Sequence record: PZ386955.1
Reading direction: 5' to 3' (one strand)
Length of the DNA stretch: 64,000 nucleotides
From: a phage
The notes under the pieces are model-generated. The model was not told the origin of the DNA and ran no database searches. It was given only the letters and a program-made list of their open reading frames with translations. The number at the start of each line of letters is the position of its first letter. Within the stretch, counting starts at the first letter, position 1. Of this stretch, positions 6,929 through 58,950 are shown one piece after another. The translations under genes were made by a program, and so were the position numbers.

Positions 6929-6944
6929 AAATTCTCCTCTATAA

Positions 6945-7343
6945 TTACATTACTTTAACACAAAACTCTCGTAAAAGAGTAGCGTCAGTTTCTTCCAACA
7001 GGTATTTACCAAGACCAATACCAAATCCTATTTCACCACTTTCGAAATGGAGGATTTGTATCTTTTCTCCACCAAGGTTAATTACTTTTGCTTTTCCAGG
7101 ATTATCCAAAACATCTCGTATTGTATCCTGTAGTAGCATTAGTTCACGTTTTGTGATAGTGGTTTCAGATATCTCTTTGTTTTCTACTCTCACTGTTAAA
7201 CGATTGTATCCACCAAAGAGACATAGTATTTGAATAAAAAAGGTATTATCTTGAGGTTCAACATCTTTTTTAGTTAGCTCAAGACGATTAGTTTCTCTAC
7301 TATAGAACGTCTCGACTAAGATTTTAGAACGATTATCTGTCAT
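6945..7343 (-). CDS. hypothetical protein
   Basis: 132-aa ORF in co-directional gene block. Confidence 0.5.
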   Translation of the reverse strand: MTDNRSKILVETFYSRETNRLELTKKDVEPQDNTFFIQILCLFGGYNRLTVRVENKEISETTITKRELMLLQDTIRDVLDNPGKAKVINLGGEKIQILHFESGEIGFGIGLGKYLLEETDATLLREFCVKVM

Positions 7344-14203: not shown

Positions 14204-15178
14204 TTAAAGACTTTCAATAACTTGACGACGCAGTTCATTGGCATCTGCAAGATTATAATTAAGACGAACGTGTTCTGCAAGCATCATACCACGATCTTCT
14301 GTGTATCTAGGGTTCCTCATTAGCTTGACAACTTCATAATGCCAAGATGCTTTAGAGTCTGCATAAATAACAGCCTTTGCATCTACTGGATTGAAGTACG
14401 GCAGCACAGGAGAACAGATAATAGGAAGACCCTTTGCACCTGCTTCCAAAATCTTCAAATTGCTTTTACAGTTGTTGAAGTCATTATCTACCAGAGGAGC
14501 AATTGCAATACTGTGACCGTCATACACAGACATATACTCACCTAGATTTTTAATAGCTGGTTTATACTGTGCATTTGGAATTTTACGTTTTATTTTAACC
14601 CACTCCGCAGTAGTTAGATACTGACTATTATTTCCAACAGGTGCAGAAGGATACACTTCGTACCCTGCAATTGTCAATAGTGTATCATCAAATGTATTAG
14701 CTACAAGAGATAAATCAGGTTCATGGCTTGCTCCTCCAGCCCAAACAATAGGTGTGTCAGAATAACGGTCTTTTGTTAAAGTAAATTGACCTTCATCGTA
14801 AGGCAGTGCGTTTCTAATAACGACAACATTACGATTTAAATGACGAATTTTGTAAGCTAGGTATTCTGTTGTTACAGTAACCACATCTGCTAACTTAATC
14901 ATCTCTACAATAGTCTTTGAGTGATTAGTAAATACGCCAGCCATATAATGTTCAGGATTAAGCGAATAAAAATCATCTAAATCAACAATAATCTTAACAC
15001 CTTGTGCCTTCAGGCGTTTAACTTCGTCTGATCCACGAGAATACACTCTATTAAAAACTAAAACGTCTTTCTTAGGTTTAAACGTATTTCCAGCAAATGG
15101 CATTACAATACGATGGTAATCACAACCACTGCCTAACTTATTATCACACTTAAGTACAGGAGTATTAGGATTTACCAT
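14204..15178 (-). CDS. putative glycosyltransferase (GT-B-like), paralogue 2
   Basis: Shares VWAG...DGH(S/Q)I(A/S)IAPLV.N.FNN.KSNLKILEAGAKGLP blocks with 13248-14192; start at 15178 with AGGAGG SD. Confidence 0.4.
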   Translation of the reverse strand: MVNPNTPVLKCDNKLGSGCDYHRIVMPFAGNTFKPKKDVLVFNRVYSRGSDEVKRLKAQGVKIIVDLDDFYSLNPEHYMAGVFTNHSKTIVEMIKLADVVTVTTEYLAYKIRHLNRNVVVIRNALPYDEGQFTLTKDRYSDTPIVWAGGASHEPDLSLVANTFDDTLLTIAGYEVYPSAPVGNNSQYLTTAEWVKIKRKIPNAQYKPAIKNLGEYMSVYDGHSIAIAPLVDNDFNNCKSNLKILEAGAKGLPIICSPVLPYFNPVDAKAVIYADSKASWHYEVVKLMRNPRYTEDRGMMLAEHVRLNYNLADANELRRQVIESL

Positions 15179-43580: not shown

Positions 43581-45191
43581 ATGAAATACACGATTTATGG
43601 TGATATTGTAAGTGTAAATAAAGATATGGGCGTGGAATCTAACTATCTTCCACCTGGATTCTATACTGTTAGTCGTGATCCCCTTGGCAATTATTTTTTA
43701 AGCCGTGGTAATCTAACAGGTGTACCGGATGTTCTGTATGGTGAAACAGAAAAACGAGCAAATCACGTTATCCGTACATTCCATCGCCGGAGTGCACAAG
43801 GTAAAAATACAGGCTTGCTTCTGACAGGAACTAAGGGTAGTGGTAAAACTATGTTAGCCAAACTCATTAGTCGTGATCTTGTAGAAGAAGGTATTCCAAC
43901 TATTATGGTTACTCAAGCCTACAGTGATGCTAATTTCATTGAACTTATTAGCAAGATCACCGACAAAGCAGTGATTATTTTTGACGAGTTTGATAAAGTA
44001 TATGAGAAGAAACAAGATCAAGAAGCACTTCTCACTTTGTTAGATGGTACTGGCAGTGGTAATAAACTGTTTATTCTAACTAAAAACAGTGGCTTTATCT
44101 CTGAATTCTTTCTAAATCGTCCTAGTCGTGTGTTTTATAATTTTAATTATGATAAAATCTCACTAGAAACTATGATTGACTATTTAGATAAAAACCTGGA
44201 TAACAAAGCACACTTTGATAATTTCCAAAGACTTTGGGATGTAAGTTTAGAGTTGTCCTTTGATGTGATCCAAGGTATAGTAGAAGAACTTAATTTCTAC
44301 CCTGATTTATCCTTTAAAGAATGCATCTCTATGATGGGCGTTTCTTTGGGTGGTGGTAATAAATGGGATACTACAAGTATTAACAATTTTAAACGTGGTA
44401 GCGGTTGTCCACAATGTAAGAGGGAGAGACAAACAATGTCCGACGATCAACATATTGCAGATTTCTTTTCTACAGGGGAATTTAAGGAAGGCACTATCTT
44501 CACCAATACAGGGAAACGTAACAAGCGTGATGCAGTATGGATGGTTGAGTGTCCTGTTTGCTCCCATGATGAATATGTTCAAGCAGGTGTTTGTGATGGT
44601 AAATTTTACTCTGCAGGACATAACCTTAAACAAGGGTATATTCCGTGTCGTTGTGGGAACTATCAGTATACAGAAGACCAGATCACCTATAGGGTAAAAA
44701 AGGAAGTAGAAGGGAAAGGGTATGTCTGGGTAGATTGGATTACCAAACCCTCTTCTATAGGTAAGTTTAAATATCTTTGTCTTGTGCATGGTGAGCAGAT
44801 AGGGAGTGCTCGTAATTTATTAAGCCTCGGTCAAGGTTGTCCACAGTGTGCTGGTCATAATCAACAGCAATTATATATTAATATTGTTAAAGATAATGAT
44901 ATTATAGTTGCTCTTAAGTTTGGTATATCTAAAGATAGCGATAGACGATTAAACGGTCAAAATAGCCGTAATCTGTTTTTTATGGAGCGTATTTGTTTAT
45001 ATGATTTTAGCACAGTGAAACAATGTAGGGCTGCTGAAAGAGCTATAAAGAAAAAATTAAAAACTGGTATTTTAACGGCAAGAGAGTTGAAAGATGGTTA
45101 TACAGAAACAGTAAGTGTTTCTGATTTGGAAAATCTTCAAAAAATTATTACACAATATGGTGGCAAATTAGTATACAGTAAGGAGATGTAA
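43581..45191 (+). CDS. AAA+ ATPase fused to zinc-ribbon repeats and a C-terminal GIY-YIG/T5orf172-like domain, paralogue B
   Basis: Walker A GTKGSGKT, Walker B IIFDEFDK, LLTLLDG; then GCPQC, CPVCSHDE, CRCG, GCPQCAGH; C-terminus IVALKFGISKDSDRRL. Confidence 0.6.
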   Translation: MKYTIYGDIVSVNKDMGVESNYLPPGFYTVSRDPLGNYFLSRGNLTGVPDVLYGETEKRANHVIRTFHRRSAQGKNTGLLLTGTKGSGKTMLAKLISRDLVEEGIPTIMVTQAYSDANFIELISKITDKAVIIFDEFDKVYEKKQDQEALLTLLDGTGSGNKLFILTKNSGFISEFFLNRPSRVFYNFNYDKISLETMIDYLDKNLDNKAHFDNFQRLWDVSLELSFDVIQGIVEELNFYPDLSFKECISMMGVSLGGGNKWDTTSINNFKRGSGCPQCKRERQTMSDDQHIADFFSTGEFKEGTIFTNTGKRNKRDAVWMVECPVCSHDEYVQAGVCDGKFYSAGHNLKQGYIPCRCGNYQYTEDQITYRVKKEVEGKGYVWVDWITKPSSIGKFKYLCLVHGEQIGSARNLLSLGQGCPQCAGHNQQQLYINIVKDNDIIVALKFGISKDSDRRLNGQNSRNLFFMERICLYDFSTVKQCRAAERAIKKKLKTGILTARELKDGYTETVSVSDLENLQKIITQYGGKLVYSKEM

Positions 45192-45743
45192 ATGCGGATT
45201 ACTGATAAGTATGTGTTCTTCTTCTCGGCAAAAGATGAATTTAGCAACTGGTATCTATCATCTTTTATTGAACCTTTAGCTCCCAAGTATAATAATTCTA
45301 TTACAAGTTCTGTTGAATTTACTTGTGTGGAACAATATATGATGTGGAGAAAAGCATGTTTGTTTTATGATTACAACATTGCATCTTCTATTTTAACCGG
45401 AGATCTAAGATATACAGGAGAAAAAGAACAGGCATATTATAAGCGACTAGGCAGATTAGTTAAAGATTATGATGAAGATACCTGGGCTTCTTTACGGGAG
45501 AAGATTGTCAAGCGTGGTTTGTATCTTAAATACACACAAAATGAAGATCTCAAAAATAAACTTATAGCTTACGCAGATAAGGAGTTTGTAGAGGCAAGTC
45601 CTTATGATTCTATTTATGGTATCAAAATGGGGATGTGGGATCGGGACGTGGAAAATAAGGATTGTTGGAAAGGACAAAATCTTTTAGGAAAATGGCATAC
45701 AGACCTTGCTGTTTATCTAAAATCACAATCTGATATTTCCTGA
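45192..45743 (+). CDS. NADAR-family protein (YbiA-like ADP-ribose N-glycosidase fold)
   Basis: Blocks FFFSAKDEFSNW, FTCVEQYMMWRKACLFYD, EASPYDSIYGIKMG match E. coli YbiA/NADAR blocks; start overlaps stop of upstream ATPase gene. Confidence 0.8.
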   Translation: MRITDKYVFFFSAKDEFSNWYLSSFIEPLAPKYNNSITSSVEFTCVEQYMMWRKACLFYDYNIASSILTGDLRYTGEKEQAYYKRLGRLVKDYDEDTWASLREKIVKRGLYLKYTQNEDLKNKLIAYADKEFVEASPYDSIYGIKMGMWDRDVENKDCWKGQNLLGKWHTDLAVYLKSQSDIS

Positions 45744-45960
45744 TATTTTGAAAATTTTTACTTTTATAAAAAGGGGTGTGGGTTTCATGTACGGAAATCC
45801 ACCCTCTGAATAATATATCCAGAGTAAATATTATTCTGTACTCTGTTAATAAAGTATTTAATTTGTTTGTTGGACTATGGTATCTGATCTTTAAAAGGCA
45901 TACTATCTCTTAACTACTATTTATAACAGAACAGTAAAATCATTTTTATAAAAAGGACAA

Positions 45961-46160
45961 AATTATTTAAAGTTTTTACAGATTTTTGGATACAAATTTT
46001 GAAAATGAAAAGTTCAAGTTTGGTCAAAATTATTTAAAGTTTTTGTACGTATTTCTATCCAGATTTTGAAAATGAAAACTTCAATTTTTTAAAAATTCCC
46101 CAGTTTATTTAAAGTTTTTTTGCCTTTTTCCGTAGAAAAATCAAAAATGAAAAGTTCAAT
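45961..46160. repeat. three tandem ~65-75-bp direct repeats
   Basis: Each unit has ATTATTTAAAGTTTTT then TTTGAAAATGAAAAGTTCAA (internal TTGAA/TTCAA inverted repeat). Confidence 0.7.
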
Positions 46161-46183
46161 TTCGTGTTTTTATAGGTGTGTGT

Positions 46184-46198
46184 ATGATAATCATTCTC
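46184..46198. promoter_or_regulatory. Fur-box-like palindrome within palindromic cluster
   Basis: ATGATAATCATTCTC vs Fur consensus ATGATAATCATTATC; followed by TCATTCTCAGTAAGAGAATGA and GAGAATTTTTCTC palindromes to 46250. Confidence 0.4.
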
Positions 46199-46477
46199 AG
46201 TAAGAGAATGAGAATCGTTAGCAAATGAGAATTTTTCTCATTTAGAGAATAACGCGCAGGGGTGGTGTTTGTCTCGCGCTCCCGTGTCCCCTCGCCATAC
46301 AATAAGAATAGCATAACCAACAACAAAAGCAAGCGATTATTTCTATCTTTACATTTCTTTACAAATTTATTTTAGACGAGCTACCGGCGATCAACCTTCC
46401 AACCAGTAGTGCCCTGGTATGTTAGCCCCGCCTTTACGCCGTGGGGGTGGCGCTTCCTCTTCTGTATGTAAAACAGT

Positions 46478-46500
46478 ATAAGCCCGATCCCTGGGCTTGT
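46478..46500 (-). terminator. possible rho-independent terminator
   Basis: Hairpin AAGCCCAGGGATCGGGCTT downstream of minus-strand ORF. Confidence 0.4.
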
Positions 46501-46505
46501 CAAGA

Positions 46506-46772
46506 TTATTTTTTGTTTTCTTGCCAGGATAGGACACCTAACCAAAAATACATGTCGCCCCGCGCCCCTGGCGGGATCTTGCTTTCCCCGCCGCCACTGC
46601 AAGCCCATAGATAACCATTTGCGAACGTATCAAAATGATCTATCTCTTCCACCTTATGATCGCCCAGGTTGAGAACGGTTTCAACCTTTAAGCCCGTTGC
46701 GCTTGCTACCTGGTGCACCGTGCCGCCTTGCCAGCCCAATGAGTGCATAAGGTGTAAAGTAGTATTTGTCAT
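46506..46772 (-). CDS. hypothetical protein encoded in GC-rich island
   Basis: 88-aa ORF with AAGGG SD, own promoter and terminator; GC-rich codon usage. Confidence 0.4.
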   Translation of the reverse strand: MTNTTLHLMHSLGWQGGTVHQVASATGLKVETVLNLGDHKVEEIDHFDTFANGYLWACSGGGESKIPPGARGDMYFWLGVLSWQENKK

Positions 46773-46819
46773 GGTATCGCCCTTTCTTTGATGTGCGCCC
46801 TGGTTGGCGCGGTAGAAAG

Positions 46820-46848
46820 ATAATAGCCCTTTCCTTTATAGATAGCAA
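46820..46848 (-). promoter_or_regulatory. sigma70-type promoter (leftward)
   Basis: TTGCTA-N17-TATTAT on minus strand. Confidence 0.5.
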
Positions 46849-46883
46849 GCAAAAAAGAAATGAAAAAAGATTAAAAAAGGGGG

Positions 46884-46912
46884 TTGACGTTCCTCACCTG
46901 GTAGCGTATTAT
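46884..46912 (+). promoter_or_regulatory. sigma70-type promoter (rightward), divergent from previous
   Basis: TTGACG-N17-TATTAT; leader contains start-stop minicistron AAGGAGGGCGCA-ATG-TAG. Confidence 0.55.
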
Positions 46913-47039
46913 TCATCTTGTCGAGGGGGGCGAGGCACAACGACAATAAACAAAAGGAGGGCGCAATGTAGGACGGGCAAAGGTGAGGATCTCCATAATC
47001 CACCGTCACAATAACATTACTTATAAAAGGTTGATAACG

Positions 47040-47135
47040 ATGATCAAGAAAGAAAACAGCTTGACGGTTGGAACGATTAACGCTATCATTCTAGCCGTTC
47101 CATTTTGGATTGTAGTAGCGGTTATTATCTTTTAA
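47040..47135 (+). CDS. 31-aa hydrophobic peptide (type I toxin-like / small membrane protein)
   Basis: MIKKENSLTVGTINAIILAVPFWIVVAVIIF; SD AAAAGG; downstream of long leader. Confidence 0.3.
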   Translation: MIKKENSLTVGTINAIILAVPFWIVVAVIIF

Positions 47136-47143
47136 AAATATTC

Positions 47144-47201
47144 TTGACAACGTTTTTTAATCTGATAAGATGTATCACATAGGGCGGCAATAGTGCCGCT
47201 C
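47144..47201 (+). promoter_or_regulatory. early promoter + GC hairpin cassette
   Basis: TTGACA-N16-TAAGAT then GGGCGGCAATAGTGCCGC hairpin, ~25 nt before ATG. Confidence 0.6.
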
Positions 47202-47223
47202 ATAACAGAAGAGAGAAATAATC

Positions 47224-47496
47224 ATGGCATCATATAGCGCATCAATGATCGTAGCTGGCATCACTGGTAAACCTATGCGCGGTGGCGGATCTTTCGCTAA
47301 TATTAATATTGATGGGCGTTTATCCCTGGACGCAGCGATCACCGTGGCACGGGAAACATTTAAAAAAGAATGTAATTTCAATAAACAAGATTATCTCGGC
47401 TTCGTTATTGAAAAAACCGCGCGCTTTGTTGATTATAAAAGCCCGAAAATGGTTGATACTACACTAAAAGCGCAAGATGTAGCATTTTTGCTTTAA
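47224..47496 (+). CDS. hypothetical early protein
   Basis: AGAGAGAAA SD; follows cassette. Confidence 0.5.
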   Translation: MASYSASMIVAGITGKPMRGGGSFANINIDGRLSLDAAITVARETFKKECNFNKQDYLGFVIEKTARFVDYKSPKMVDTTLKAQDVAFLL

Positions 47497-47499
47497 GGC

Positions 47500-47559
47500 T
47501 TGACACTGAAAAATAATTTGGTAATATCTACTACATAGGGCGGGAAATGGTTTCCCGCC
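47500..47559 (+). promoter_or_regulatory. early promoter + GC hairpin cassette
   Basis: TTGACA-N16-TAATAT; hairpin GGGCGGGAAATGGTTTCCCGCC. Confidence 0.65.
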
Positions 47560-47581
47560 AAATCAAAGAAAGGGTAACACA

Positions 47582-47944
47582 ATGAGCAAGCAAATCAATA
47601 CTATCATGTTAAACCTGGTATCTTTCCGCGATGACGTGAAAAATCTTTCGCGTGATGCAGTAGATGCACGGATCGAAAGCTATCGCTCACAGATCGCAAC
47701 ATTACCGCTAAAACGTGATCAACATGCCGCTAATATGATGCTTAATGCTATGCTTAAAAAGATGATTCAATGTGATCTTACCCTGGCTTATGAATATGCT
47801 GGCGATCTCTTTGTAACATACAATAAGCCCGTTCCAGGTATGAGCACAACCAAAGAATTGCATGCCTTAAATCTGCGACAAGATGCATGGGATAATATGC
47901 GCCGCGTTATGGTATGGGTAGAAAGCGGCAAAATTTACGCATAA
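47582..47944 (+). CDS. hypothetical early protein
   Basis: AAAGAAAGGG SD; follows cassette. Confidence 0.5.
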   Translation: MSKQINTIMLNLVSFRDDVKNLSRDAVDARIESYRSQIATLPLKRDQHAANMMLNAMLKKMIQCDLTLAYEYAGDLFVTYNKPVPGMSTTKELHALNLRQDAWDNMRRVMVWVESGKIYA

Positions 47945-47948
47945 AGGC

Positions 47949-48004
47949 TTTACATTACACGAAAACCTGATAAGCTATCTTAAAGCGGGAATAGTTCCCG
48001 CTTT
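47949..48004 (+). promoter_or_regulatory. early promoter + GC hairpin cassette
   Basis: TTTACA-N16-TAAGCT; hairpin AAAGCGGGAATAGTTCCCGCTTT. Confidence 0.55.
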
Positions 48005-48020
48005 CATAGGATAAAACTTT

Positions 48021-48167
48021 ATGAAACAATATGTAATGAGTATTCACACCAAAAACGGCGCTACTGTTACGACTCCGGCACGGTTTGCACTTGTAAACCG
48101 TTGCAAGAGACTAAAACGAGAGTTAAAAAATAACCGTGCAACGGGCTTTAAACGCTGGGGAGGATAA
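48021..48167 (+). CDS. hypothetical small basic protein
   Basis: 48 aa; below ORF-track cut-off; follows cassette. Confidence 0.35.
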   Translation: MKQYVMSIHTKNGATVTTPARFALVNRCKRLKRELKNNRATGFKRWGG

Positions 48168-48169
48168 TC

Positions 48170-48442
48170 TTGTTTTTTCTAAAAGTTTTTGATAATGTGA
48201 TCGCTTTTGAACATGCTACAACGTTCAACCTGGCGAGATACGCTATCAGGTTTAAAGATAATGTTTATCCCCGTGCTGGAGGCGGTTACACTATTTTTAA
48301 TCATCGTAACGCTCAATTAACGGATATAACGAATCCAGATCCTGGAGTGTATCGCATAGGCTGGCTACCGTCAAAAGACGCGGCAAGCATGTTTAAGGTG
48401 TGTAAACTACTAACAGAAGAGGCGAACGAACATGGGGCGTGA
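48170..48442 (+). CDS. hypothetical early protein (TTG start)
   Basis: GGGGAGGA SD 6 nt before TTG. Confidence 0.45.
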   Translation: MFFLKVFDNVIAFEHATTFNLARYAIRFKDNVYPRAGGGYTIFNHRNAQLTDITNPDPGVYRIGWLPSKDAASMFKVCKLLTEEANEHGA

Positions 48443-48986
48443 ATATGTGATCCAGTCCTGGGTAAAGCATGATGCTGATGATCCGCGCATAATACCAGAT
48501 GACATGATCGATCACATGGTAGGGTATAGCGGGGAGCAGATAGGAAATCGAGCGGCAAAGAGCAACGGTCACACAAAAACGCGATCCGTTCGCCCTGGTT
48601 GGCTGGCAAATGGTAACGCTGACATTGCAAGCGCCGCAGATCCAAGCGATGACGCTAAAAATAATCCCTTATACAGCATTGATCCGGCTTTTAAGGTGTT
48701 AGAAGAGTATCCCGCTAAATTAGCCGCACTAGATAAGGCATACGAAGAAAAGCGCATGGCATGGACGGTATACAACACCGCTAAGATGGTGCTAGATGCA
48801 AAATTGATTAAAGCCCAGGAGAAGATCAATAAACTTGTTACCATAGCGCAAGAGGAAGACCAGGACGACCAGGAGGAAGAGGAAGAAATCATGCCTACCC
48901 TGGAAGAGGAAGAGATCCAGCCATACATGCCGACGGAAGAGGAAAAAAGACAAGCTCTAAAAAATTATGAAAATTGTGTTGTGTAA
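48432..48986 (+). CDS. hypothetical protein with poly-acidic C-terminus
   Basis: C-terminal QEEDQDDQEEEEEIMPTLEEEEIQPYMPTEEE. Confidence 0.5.
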   Translation: MGREYVIQSWVKHDADDPRIIPDDMIDHMVGYSGEQIGNRAAKSNGHTKTRSVRPGWLANGNADIASAADPSDDAKNNPLYSIDPAFKVLEEYPAKLAALDKAYEEKRMAWTVYNTAKMVLDAKLIKAQEKINKLVTIAQEEDQDDQEEEEEIMPTLEEEEIQPYMPTEEEKRQALKNYENCVV

Positions 48987-57191: not shown

Positions 57192-57206
57192 ATAACATTT
57201 CACACC

Positions 57207-57232
57207 AGGGCGCACAAAGCGCCCTTTCTTTT
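57207..57232 (+). terminator. rho-independent terminator
   Basis: Hairpin AGGGCGC(ACAA)AGCGCCCT + TTCTTTT. Confidence 0.7.
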
Positions 57233-57440
57233 ACCTCAATAAAGATGATAGCTTTTACCTATCAAAAACGTTCACCGAAAAAAGTGAATAGATCGCGGTA
57301 TCGAGCTAATCAAGGAGCAGATGAACAACCATACCATGAAGATCATAAGGCGCTTACAACGCGTTTTAGACCGCTTGTTTTTAATTTCTCCATGTAACTA
57401 TCTGGCAAAAACAGCCTTTTTCTTGTCTTTCCTCTTAAAT

Positions 57441-57456
57441 AATAATCATTCTCATT
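57441..57456. promoter_or_regulatory. Fur-box-like half-palindrome
   Basis: AATAATCATTCTCATT. Confidence 0.35.
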
Positions 57457-57492
57457 TGTAGCTGATTATTTATGCAATAAACTGAATAATGC

Positions 57493-57510
57493 AATAATGA
57501 TAATCATTCT
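57493..57510. promoter_or_regulatory. Fur-box-like palindrome
   Basis: AATAATGATAATCATTCT (16/19 to GATAATGATAATCATTATC). Confidence 0.45.
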
Positions 57511-58362
57511 TAACTTAAGACCATCTAACCTATAAAATAATAAGCTATCTAACTAAATTAAAGCTAATTATCTCACCTTTATTTATAACTTACTGTTACT
57601 ATCTCATTGATAACCTTATATTAAACAACAATAACTAATATAAATCATTACCAAGCTAAAGATAAGCTATCTAACCTTTAAAACTATAACTATAATCTAT
57701 CGAATTGTTGCACAAAGTAACTATTAAATTGTTAGTAACATTACTAAATAATTAATATCCTATCTATTTATGATCTAATCTTTACCTTCCTATCTATTAC
57801 CTAAATAATCATTTCATACAATAACTATAACAAGAAATATAATTCGCAAGCGTATCATTAGCAGCCTATGCCGGACACATAGGCGGCTAATAATAACGCA
57901 ACTACACACCCCACATAATAACCATCACCGATAGTTATTATTTGTGCTTATGTAGCTTGCAACAATTGCAAGCGCAACAATATACATGGTATATTGTATC
58001 CCTTACATTGTTGCGGTGCGTTATTATTAGCTAATGTTTAGAACATTGGCTATAATATAAGCTATCCAATAATAATAAGCTATACAATAATAAACATAGT
58101 GAATAATGACCCCCGATGATCATAATGCGCCACCTTCCAGGGGGCGCTATGTGAACACAAAGAAACCTTTCTTGTCAAGAAAAATATTGCCACTATTGCG
58201 CAAAATTATTTATATCTGAATAGATGATTTTTCATACTATTGCCCCCAATACTATCCCTATTTGTTGCCCTAACTATTGTCATTTGTTGAGCCTACTTTC
58301 TTAAAAGCGCAATAAATCAGAATTATCTTGATTTTTAGGGCGTTTTATAGTATAGAAAATAT

Positions 58363-58381
58363 GCAAATGATAATCATTATC
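58363..58381. promoter_or_regulatory. Fur-box-like palindrome
   Basis: GCAAATGATAATCATTATC: 16 contiguous identities to Fur consensus; just downstream of TTGATT...TATAGA promoter-like site. Confidence 0.5.
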
Positions 58382-58548
58382 AGCTATCTTCCACGGGTGG
58401 CACTATTTCACGCAGGATCATTTCATTTGGCAAGGTGTATATAGATGTTTAGACTTGCCAAGCCATTGATTTACTTAGAATTTATCTGTTTTGTTGTGAG
58501 TAGTACCTTTCTTGCTCAGAAAATAATCAAAAGTCTTATAAGTCATTG

Positions 58549-58579
58549 AATGATAATGCAAATGATAATTATTCTCATT
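58549..58579. promoter_or_regulatory. tandem Fur-box-like palindromes
   Basis: GAATGATAATGCAAATGATAATTATTCTCATT. Confidence 0.45.
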
Positions 58580-58950
58580 GATATTTGAGGGGGACGGTCG
58601 GCAGAAATCGGGGGGCGCTGAAAATCGCGTTAAGCACCTCTCGCAAGCGAGCAGTATTTTGCGGCAAGTTATTGATATTATTGACTTTACGCTTATGAAA
58701 AGGGGGTGTGTCGAAATAAATCGGGTATACCGGAAAAATTTTGTGGCATAGATATTTATTTGTCTATATTATGTACAAAGGGGTGTGTTAAAAATAATAG
58801 GTATATATAGAATAATTGATAGGGAATACCTATACTAATTCCTATACTAAATCCTTCATTAATGATGTTTCTATGGTGCTGTTCTTGTAATAGATGAAAA
58901 GACGCTGTATGATGTGTGGCATGAAACGTAAATTTATAAAGGAGTCTGAT

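Follow-up and report, generated by a model that had tools for sequence, protein, structure and literature searches.

A conserved promoter, palindrome and repeat module at the early-gene border of rV5/phi92-like phages is a candidate transcription-activated replication origin

Introduction

What do three tandem repeats and a cluster of palindromes do at the edge of the early genes of a lytic coliphage? The question is raised by a locus beginning at position 45,961 of a 64,000-nucleotide stretch of sequence record PZ386955.1 (hereafter the window), which comes from a Justusliebigvirus myophage (phi92-like, Stephanstirmvirinae). The rV5/phi92-like myoviruses (Vequintavirinae and Stephanstirmvirinae) are among the coliphages with the broadest host range and are common in therapy cocktails and in collections such as BASEL, and their replication origin and early circuitry are still to be located. 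The rV5 authors sought an origin by skew analysis without finding one, and the rV5 map carries an unexplained 'non-coding' box (PMC3606486). An initial annotation of the window had suggested that the repeats are an iteron-like replication origin, a packaging or transfer signal, or an array of regulator binding sites.

Here, we describe the locus as a precise and conserved candidate of about 750 bp. We read the three repeats as predicted protein-binding units of a cis-acting module at the inner edge of the early block in rV5/phi92-like phages, and the most likely single mechanism, to which we give a probability of roughly 0.37, is that this module acts as a transcription-activated lytic replication origin. 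Its elements can be deleted, placed on a plasmid or used as bait, which makes the origin question directly testable. In the literature on origins, Fur boxes and transcriptomes in this phage group, we found no description of the module, of its RNA or of Fur-type boxes.

Results

Three bipartite units form the array

The three direct repeats were confirmed by repeat searches and motif scans. Tandem Repeats Finder reports 45958–46088 (period 67, 2.0 copies, 82% matches, score 185), and a repeat search detects three copies of 79 nt that begin at 45942, 46009 and 46084 (spacing 67 and 75), the later two being 73% and 71% identical to copy 1. Two boxes recur in them. Box A, TTATTTAAAGTTTTT, is present in three exact copies (at 45963, 46030 and 46105), and its single match beyond the array, at 14206, carries two mismatches; box B, AAAATGAAAAGTTCAA, is found at 46002, 46069 (one mismatch) and 46144, for a chance expectation of 0.32, with no other match in the 64 kb. 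A search for the same repeat elsewhere, as the initial annotation had advised, therefore gave no convincing recurrence of either box outside the array in the window. The longer words that it had picked out held in part: copies 1 and 2 contain the 16-mer ATTATTTAAAGTTTTT unchanged and copy 3 contains it with one mismatch, while the 19-mer TTGAAAATGAAAAGTTCAA is exact in copy 1 only, with one and two mismatches in copies 2 and 3.

Box B follows box A at an offset of 39 bp in all three units, which are themselves separated by gaps of 28 and 36 bp. Both boxes carry the 10-mer TTRAASTTTT, one inverted relative to the other, and this 10-mer occurs six times in the 64 kb, always within the array and in alternating orientation. 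Hence, each unit is a bipartite inverted site:

45963–46017, no strand: unit 1, box A (45963–45977) plus box B (46002–46017), an inverted TTRAASTTTT pair
46030–46084, no strand: unit 2, box A (46030–46044) plus box B (46069–46084), from the box scans and TTRAASTTTT
46105–46159, no strand: unit 3, box A (46105–46119) plus box B (46144–46159), from the box scans and TTRAASTTTT

The array is about 23% GC in the window, of which it is the second least stable 200–300-bp stretch (z about 3.7). The units were rejected as sigma70 promoters, as no -35/-10 geometry is kept on either strand, in or beside them.

In the GenBank record of inny, just a 'repeat_region' is annotated at this locus. Other records carry hypothetical coding sequences over the three units (6934–7278 of the KPP-1 locus L155, KPP_12311; 3418–3528 of the Eryne locus L002; 1172–1411 of locus L008, W70_22); these are probably spurious gene calls, which several genome annotations have placed over elements of the module.

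The module is kept while the unit sequence changes

Over 45000–47500, the window is 97–98% identical to phages outra, ESCO8, arall and others. Related loci were gathered with a gapped pattern from the conserved core, which gave 46 loci, 41 of them distinct and 35 fully flanked. The module is present in all 35 fully flanked loci and in KPP-1, and its order on the promoter strand is invariant, namely promoter, conserved transcript region, one to five palindromes and bipartite units, with the proximal palindrome keeping a constant distance from the GC-rich core in all cases where this could be measured. There are three units in each lineage inspected, with deviations in Phapecoctavirus, where two loci have two full copies 138 bp apart and a degenerate middle unit, and in W70, which has four short copies. 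Unit 3 is positionally orthologous throughout Stephanstirmvirinae, where ...CCCAG precedes it. The unit sequence itself falls into types by lineage: an S-type (TTATTTAAAs...AAAAGTTCAA), a V-type (AATACGAT...CGATCGAGAAC) and a separate W70 type. Clear three-unit arrays have spacings of 61–69 and 74–80 bp, and the span from first to third unit is about 141–142 bp in four genera (142 bp in the window, 141 in KPP-1, 142 in SSE121 and 141 in Klebsiella phi1) and 138–149 bp elsewhere.

The initial annotation had named repeats missing from relatives with conserved flanks as one part of what would count against it; units are present in every lineage inspected. A number and geometry that are kept while the sequence is lineage-specific is the pattern expected of sites that co-evolve with a lineage-specific binding protein in a fixed-geometry complex, which is what we predict here. 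It is also this conservation that speaks against a neutral, recent tandem duplication without function. Slippage repeats are frequent in AT-rich intergenic DNA, but the three units are 71–73% alike and yet each is almost invariant in 8 Justusliebigvirus genomes, where the few differences lie in the spacers, and other subfamilies have three units of the same span with unrelated sequence. We give this explanation practically no weight.

Three of the records, labelled 'Campylobacter phage' (MG065639, MG065645 and MG065650, for A150, A145 and B15), closely match these coliphage genomes, so their host labels look doubtful; A150 is about 89% identical over the non-coding gap, and B15 is 93% identical over the 76-bp element described below only.

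A promoter directed toward the array precedes a conserved transcript region

On the strand that reads leftward into the array lie the following elements:

46475–46503, minus strand: sigma70 promoter TTGACA-17-TATACT (11/12 consensus match), directed toward the array, with its start at about 46467–46469
46386–46432, minus strand: 5' hairpin of the transcript, GGCGGGGCUAAC.UACC(variable loop)GGU.G.AAGGU..AUCGCC (RNAalifold, 39 sequences)
46346–46363, minus strand: two direct TGTAAAGA octamers 10 bp apart (GTAAA-N5-GTAAA), octamers invariant and spacer variable
46249–46298, minus strand: long GC-rich hairpin (AUGGCG...CGUUAU closing stem) followed by UUAUUCUCU, from folding and conservation
45766–45804, minus strand: intrinsic-terminator-like hairpin followed by UUUUU, left of the array (folding of 45740–45830 as RNA gives hairpins, then CCCCUUUUUAU, z = -2.4)

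The promoter hexamers are kept, with a divergent spacer, in 35/35 loci and in KPP-1. The spacer (46480–46498 in the window, and its homologues) can form a GC-rich hairpin whose sequence varies by genus with its pairing potential retained, and this hairpin may at the same time serve the small upstream open reading frame (ORF) as its terminator. From just right of the palindromes up to that 88-amino-acid (88-aa) ORF, a stretch with the promoter at its right end, the mean column identity across subfamilies is 80%, and the stretch is not coding because its indels are not multiples of three. This stretch includes a 76-bp element (46223–46298) that is 80–95% identical in Phapecoctavirus, Seunavirus and Klebsiella/Cronobacter phages, in which its flanks are unalignable. 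We rejected this element as a coding sequence, since a 1-nt indel between lineages excludes a shared reading frame.

With no conserved ORF downstream of the promoter, the purpose of leftward transcription is apparently the RNA as such or an effect on the DNA. The module also points to an undescribed, conserved early non-coding RNA, a candidate of about 190–225 nt within 46243–46503 (minus strand) that would end just before the proximal palindrome. In its 5' hairpin, all pairs are retained among the 39 sequences, one pair being A-U in 25 and G-C in 14 with none broken, and the apical stem varies in length and sequence. The GC-rich 3' hairpin is proposed as the 3' end and a leaky terminator. The octamer pair between them is kept in Stephanstirmvirinae, Seunavirus and Mydovirus and not in W70; GTAAA-N5-GTAAA is presumably the CpxR box consensus, which we treat as a lead only. 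Rfam gave no credible match in 44500–48500 at E up to 10, and ARAGORN found no tRNA or tmRNA in the window. To the left of the array, the terminator-like sequence is conserved in 8 Justusliebigvirus genomes, and its fold suggests that it is the likely end of leftward transcription crossing the array.

The palindromes are of Fur-box type

The palindromes that the initial annotation had placed after the repeats are present (46186–46215 and 46227–46239) and resolve to 7-1-7 sites (TGAKAATnATTMTCA):

46185–46199, no strand: 7-1-7 palindrome TGATAATCATTCTCA, Fur-box type (motif scan)
46209–46223, no strand: weak 7-1-7 palindrome TGAGAATCGTTAGCA, with better copies in relatives at the same position
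46226–46240, no strand: proximal 7-1-7 palindrome TGAGAATTTTTCTCA; its offset from the GC-rich core is constant among the compared genera (-38; W70 -36)

With at most one mismatch, the degenerate motif TGAKAATNATTMTCA has 6 matches in the window for 0.10 expected, and all six lie in two large non-coding gaps: two in the module and the others at 57440, 57498, 58368 and 58563. We take the Fur operator consensus to be GATAATGATAATCATTATC in E. coli or, in 7-1-7 form, TGATAATnATTATCA. The site at 58368 is a perfect 7-1-7 match (TGATAATCATTATCA), and 58363–58381 fits the Fur 19-mer consensus at 17/19. As a control of specificity, the motif was run over 590–640 kb of E. coli K-12 at up to two mismatches and gave one match, the Fur box of the entC promoter, which has 16 contiguous bases in common with the phage site at 58368. 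From 68 distinct phage sites, we derive the consensus AAATGAGAAT-S-ATTCTCATTT. Half-site position 4 is G in 65% and T in 32% of these sites, whereas Fur prefers T, so that the two consensuses are not identical and depart from each other at one base per half-site. By these motif comparisons, the palindromes are operators of Fur-box type, and, because of the one-base departure, the protein that binds them may be host Fur or a phage protein of closely related specificity. Together with the bipartite units, they bear out, as far as sequence goes, the array of regulator binding sites that the initial annotation had offered as one option. No Fur-like or other DNA-binding domain was detected in 30 neighbouring ORFs (Pfam, PHROGs), and no promoter-like sites were found overlapping 46185–46240.

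Palindrome copy number differs among phages that are otherwise 97–98% identical, with 2–3 in the window and 5 in BME3 and EC.P2. The window and Eryne have deletions of 52–59 bp in the cluster, whose ends fall in or beside palindrome copies (46185–46240 compared with loci L001, L003, L120 and L122). In a Keio screen with phage LL12, only lipopolysaccharide biosynthesis genes were required (PMC7229145).

The module borders the early block, and the genome end lies elsewhere

Leftward genes (structural) occupy about 4.8–41.6 kb of the window, and genes run rightward from 41.6 kb on. The gene map agrees with the earlier placement of the repeats between the rightward block, whose last gene is NADAR/YbiA-like (45192–45743), and the early region, a run of small ORFs without assigned function that starts at about 46.9 kb behind several consensus sigma70 promoters (46884, 47061, 47144 and 47500). 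The extent first given needs correction: the non-coding stretch was put at about 600 bp, but the ORF-free interval is 45744–46505, or 762 bp; the feature was ended at 46250, but conservation runs well past that point, and non-coding DNA resumes beyond a small minus-strand ORF and continues to about 46880. This ORF is the only one in the gap:

46506–46772, minus strand: 88-aa ORF, function unassigned (phrog_19316; PHROGs and ORF list)

BME3, a close relative, has a 342-bp direct terminal repeat (DTR) by PhageTerm (PMC12210895), which is also annotated in its record. The window has its homologue 12.1 kb to the right of the module, in a second non-coding gap, where it starts exactly at a Fur-type palindrome:

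58363–58704, no strand: BME3 DTR homologue, putative physical genome end (97.4% identity to the BME3 DTR)
58368–58382 and 58563–58577, no strand: Fur-type palindromes in the DTR homologue (motif scan)
57440–57454 and 57498–57512, no strand: further Fur-type palindromes in the second gap (motif scan)

This second gap spans 57192–58893 (1.7 kb) and holds the DTR homologue and the four Fur-type palindromes; a ATAAGCTATC(T/C)AA motif also recurs in it, near 57538, 57661, 58058 and 58076. For the position of the module relative to the DTR in Vequintavirinae we used KPP-1 (Mydovirus), a megablast with the W70 region having retrieved neither rV5 nor LL12. The DTR of KPP-1 is 514 bp long, at 116,316–116,829 (PMC9862379). 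Palindromes occur at, and just beyond, its right edge, and about 8.1 kb inward is the full module, whose three units have spacings of 67 and 74 bp. The small early genes of the intervening DNA are oriented toward the DTR, which mirrors the layout of the window; over 30 kb on the other side of the DTR, there is no comparable gap.

The DTRs bear directly on the proposed packaging signal. With its repeated boxes tens of bp apart, the array resembles TerS-binding arrays such as cosB and SPP1 pac, and several GenBank records begin in or near the region. However, the PhageTerm-derived DTRs lie elsewhere, 12 kb off (BME3 homologue) and 8 kb off (KPP-1), and the record starts look arbitrary because the records are circular or reopened assemblies. 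The array does not coincide with the physical ends of virion DNA as placed by the DTR at 58363–58704 and by that of KPP-1, and a terminase packaging site (pac or cos) at the array is very improbable.

The same layout lends something to the proposed transfer signal. In a T5-like DNA-entry checkpoint, the module would bound a first-entering, DTR-proximal early block, and host or virion proteins would pause or anchor the DNA there until early proteins are made. Two subfamilies share the order DTR, palindromes, small end-directed early genes and module, so that the module sits at the inner edge of the end-proximal early block in both; the distance between module and DTR is 12.1 kb in the window, or 8.3% of the genome, and about 8.1 kb in KPP-1. 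In T5, the iss is similarly an untranslated region of about 1.2 kb, with direct and inverted repeats, palindromes and DnaA boxes, about 8% from the end (10.1101/866236), and the Vequintavirinae are, as T5-like phages are, highly sensitive to daunorubicin (PMC13250531), a weak point in favour. On the other hand, we found no literature report of two-step DNA transfer in these phages, their DTRs are 342–514 bp and not about 10 kb, 45700–46900 has no DnaA boxes, and a conserved promoter or RNA component is missing from the T5 iss. Even in T5, a sequence basis for the stop is unproven. We therefore consider a checkpoint unlikely, but well ahead of packaging.

A closer competitor of the origin is a regulatory locus without a role in replication, in which an early small RNA gene would be combined with operators, a phage regulator on the units and Fur or a Fur-like protein on the palindromes, so as to control or insulate transcription at the border or to organise the DNA. 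The conserved promoter and transcript fit this, as do the terminator-like 3' hairpin ahead of the palindromes, a GC skew without a switch and the possible host-regulator boxes, of Fur type (the motif checked on entC) and CpxR-like (GTAAA-N5-GTAAA, the lead above). Since both the window and KPP-1 have palindromes in the other gap and at DTR edges too, these would be operators of general use in this phage group, with no specific tie to an origin. Against it, the array is badly placed to regulate the first early promoters, being about 650 bp away from them and beyond the RNA gene; promoter geometry is not kept inside or beside the units, and there is no target gene downstream. The strict three-unit geometry of 141–142 bp also suggests a nucleoprotein machine over simple operators. 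We see this locus as a doubtful but serious second candidate, distinctly more probable than the checkpoint.

Other genes of the window

For the 88-aa protein, the AlphaFold model is confident (five helices, predicted local distance difference test score 94), and Pfam and structural comparison give no significant or informative match. Seunavirus and Mydovirus have an unrelated ORF of 60–63 aa in its place (KPP_12301; unannotated in SSE121). Further left, a 536-aa ORF (43581–45191) has an AAA ATPase N-terminus fused to a CapR/T5orf172 endonuclease C-terminus; the two parts are separate genes in inny and Eryne (1128 and about 1173–1194 bp), so the ORF appears to have been joined by an in-frame deletion of about 760 bp in the window. 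Arrays with a 9-bp period (GGAGACAAG and similar, coding for collagen-like Gly-X-Y) lie at 779–940 within a 617-aa ORF (53–1906), presumably a tail-fibre gene.

Discussion

How the module could act as an origin

From the order, conservation and motif identities of these elements, we infer protein binding, gating and a function in replication as follows. Host RNA polymerase would fire from the early promoter (46503–46475) toward the array and make a structured non-coding transcript of about 190–225 nt ahead of the operators. The palindromes (46240–46185), bound by host Fur or a Fur-like phage protein, would gate read-through between promoter and array, and a lineage-specific phage protein would assemble on the three units (46159–45963, span 141–142 bp). 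Transcription, the 3' end of the RNA or both could then help to open or prime the adjoining DNA of low stability, and leftward transcription would stop at the terminator at about 45800–45766.

Several observations favour such an origin. The repeats are locus-specific, and the order of elements is kept while the unit sequence changes. The array has three directly repeated units of two boxes each, as iteron origins have at least three binding units, and the promoter (11/12 consensus, 35/35 loci) is by its sequence a counterpart of the early or middle promoter of T4 oriF and oriG. The iteron-like origin of the initial annotation is thus plausible as far as an early promoter fires into an array that is the second least stable DNA; its classical attributes are missing, and the spacing of 67 and 75 bp is atypical.

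A number of findings weigh against the origin and keep our estimate low. The units are bipartite, 55 bp long and at a pitch of 67 and 75 bp, a spacing unlike that of classical 20–23-bp iterons; iteron-type origins have repeats of 17–22 bp set about two helical turns apart. In 45700–46900, there are no DnaA (TTWTNCACA) or IHF (WATCAANNNNTTR) boxes, and no Rep, O or DnaA-like initiator was found among the 30 neighbouring ORFs (Pfam, PHROGs). The GC skew is positive on both sides of the array, with no origin-type switch. Transcription from the promoter would meet a terminator-like hairpin before it reaches the array. The least stable DNA of the window is 57530–57829 in the gap next to the DTR, and AT-richness is not universal, the homologous array of one lineage (L146/L136) being 45% GC. 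The RNA structure is weakly supported as well: consensus folding energies are -26.4 and -23.8 kcal/mol on the two strands, and covariation is low. With folding nearly as good on the opposite strand, the argument for an RNA comes mainly from the conserved promoter and the one covarying hairpin; little covariation is possible because the transcript sequence is conserved. The oriC 13-mer was likewise absent from the region, and GATC is unenriched.

The Fur-type boxes raise a possible link of host iron sensing to the development of lytic phages. In its broadest form, such a link would mean that these strictly lytic phages have host Fur operators arrayed at key cis-acting DNA, that is, in the interval between the early promoter and the candidate origin and at the DTR edge; Fur would then gate the origin or control module, or replicating phage genomes, with at least 6 boxes each, would titrate Fur and so de-repress host iron uptake for iron-dependent ribonucleotide reductases, and the module would be a new type of phage origin. 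We regard this combination as a long shot, on a par with or slightly below the checkpoint.

Comparison with known systems

The palindromes share with Fur boxes the 7-1-7 architecture and the central C/G, and they are clustered as Fur sites often are. They differ in the G at one half-site position and in conserved AAA/TTT flanks, and those of the module overlap no recognisable promoter.

With the T5 iss, the module has in common an untranslated region of about 1 kb, dense in repeats and palindromes, that borders an end-proximal block of small early genes on its inner side (window and KPP-1), with boxes of the type bound by host DNA-binding proteins and a conservation better than that of the adjoining ORFs. 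The boxes are of DnaA in T5, where they are paired inside large inverted repeats, and of Fur type here; the T5 region lies inside a terminal repeat of about 10 kb, compared with a DTR of 342 bp in the window, and a conserved promoter or RNA is a feature of the module and not of T5.

Iteron origins (R6K gamma, RK2, P1 oriR and ori-lambda) have iterons of 17–22 bp at a pitch of about 22 bp, beside an initiator gene and with DnaA or IHF sites. The module resembles them in having several directly repeated units next to DNA that, in the window, is AT-rich, with a repeat sequence that co-varies with lineage, and differs in lacking the short pitch, the adjacent initiator gene and the DnaA or IHF sites. 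In lambda (pR into ori-lambda) and P1 (P53/Op53 into oriL), operator-controlled transcription activates an origin with repeated initiator sites; the origin lies inside the initiator gene (O or repL), and the operators overlap the promoter. A promoter under palindromic operators and directed toward repeated sites is the feature shared with the module, which has no initiator gene and has its palindromes downstream of the transcript.

The origins of T4 have no sequence similarity to the module, which is known from sequence alone, and are compared by their architecture. T4 oriF and oriG consist of a promoter and an AT-rich unwinding element, and oriE combines an early promoter with direct repeats at even intervals, close to where transcription changes direction; what these repeats do is unproven as well (PMC3016281). 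In T4, the unwinding element follows the promoter directly, whereas about 230 nt of structured RNA and palindromes intervene here and the AT-rich array starts about 310 bp downstream of the transcription start, past the terminator-like hairpin; the repeats of oriE are 12 nt long, compared with bipartite units of 55 bp placed 67–75 bp apart. What the module and the T4 origins have in common is a promoter usable early that fires into easily unwound DNA, to which oriE adds evenly spaced direct repeats, and a position near switches in transcription direction.

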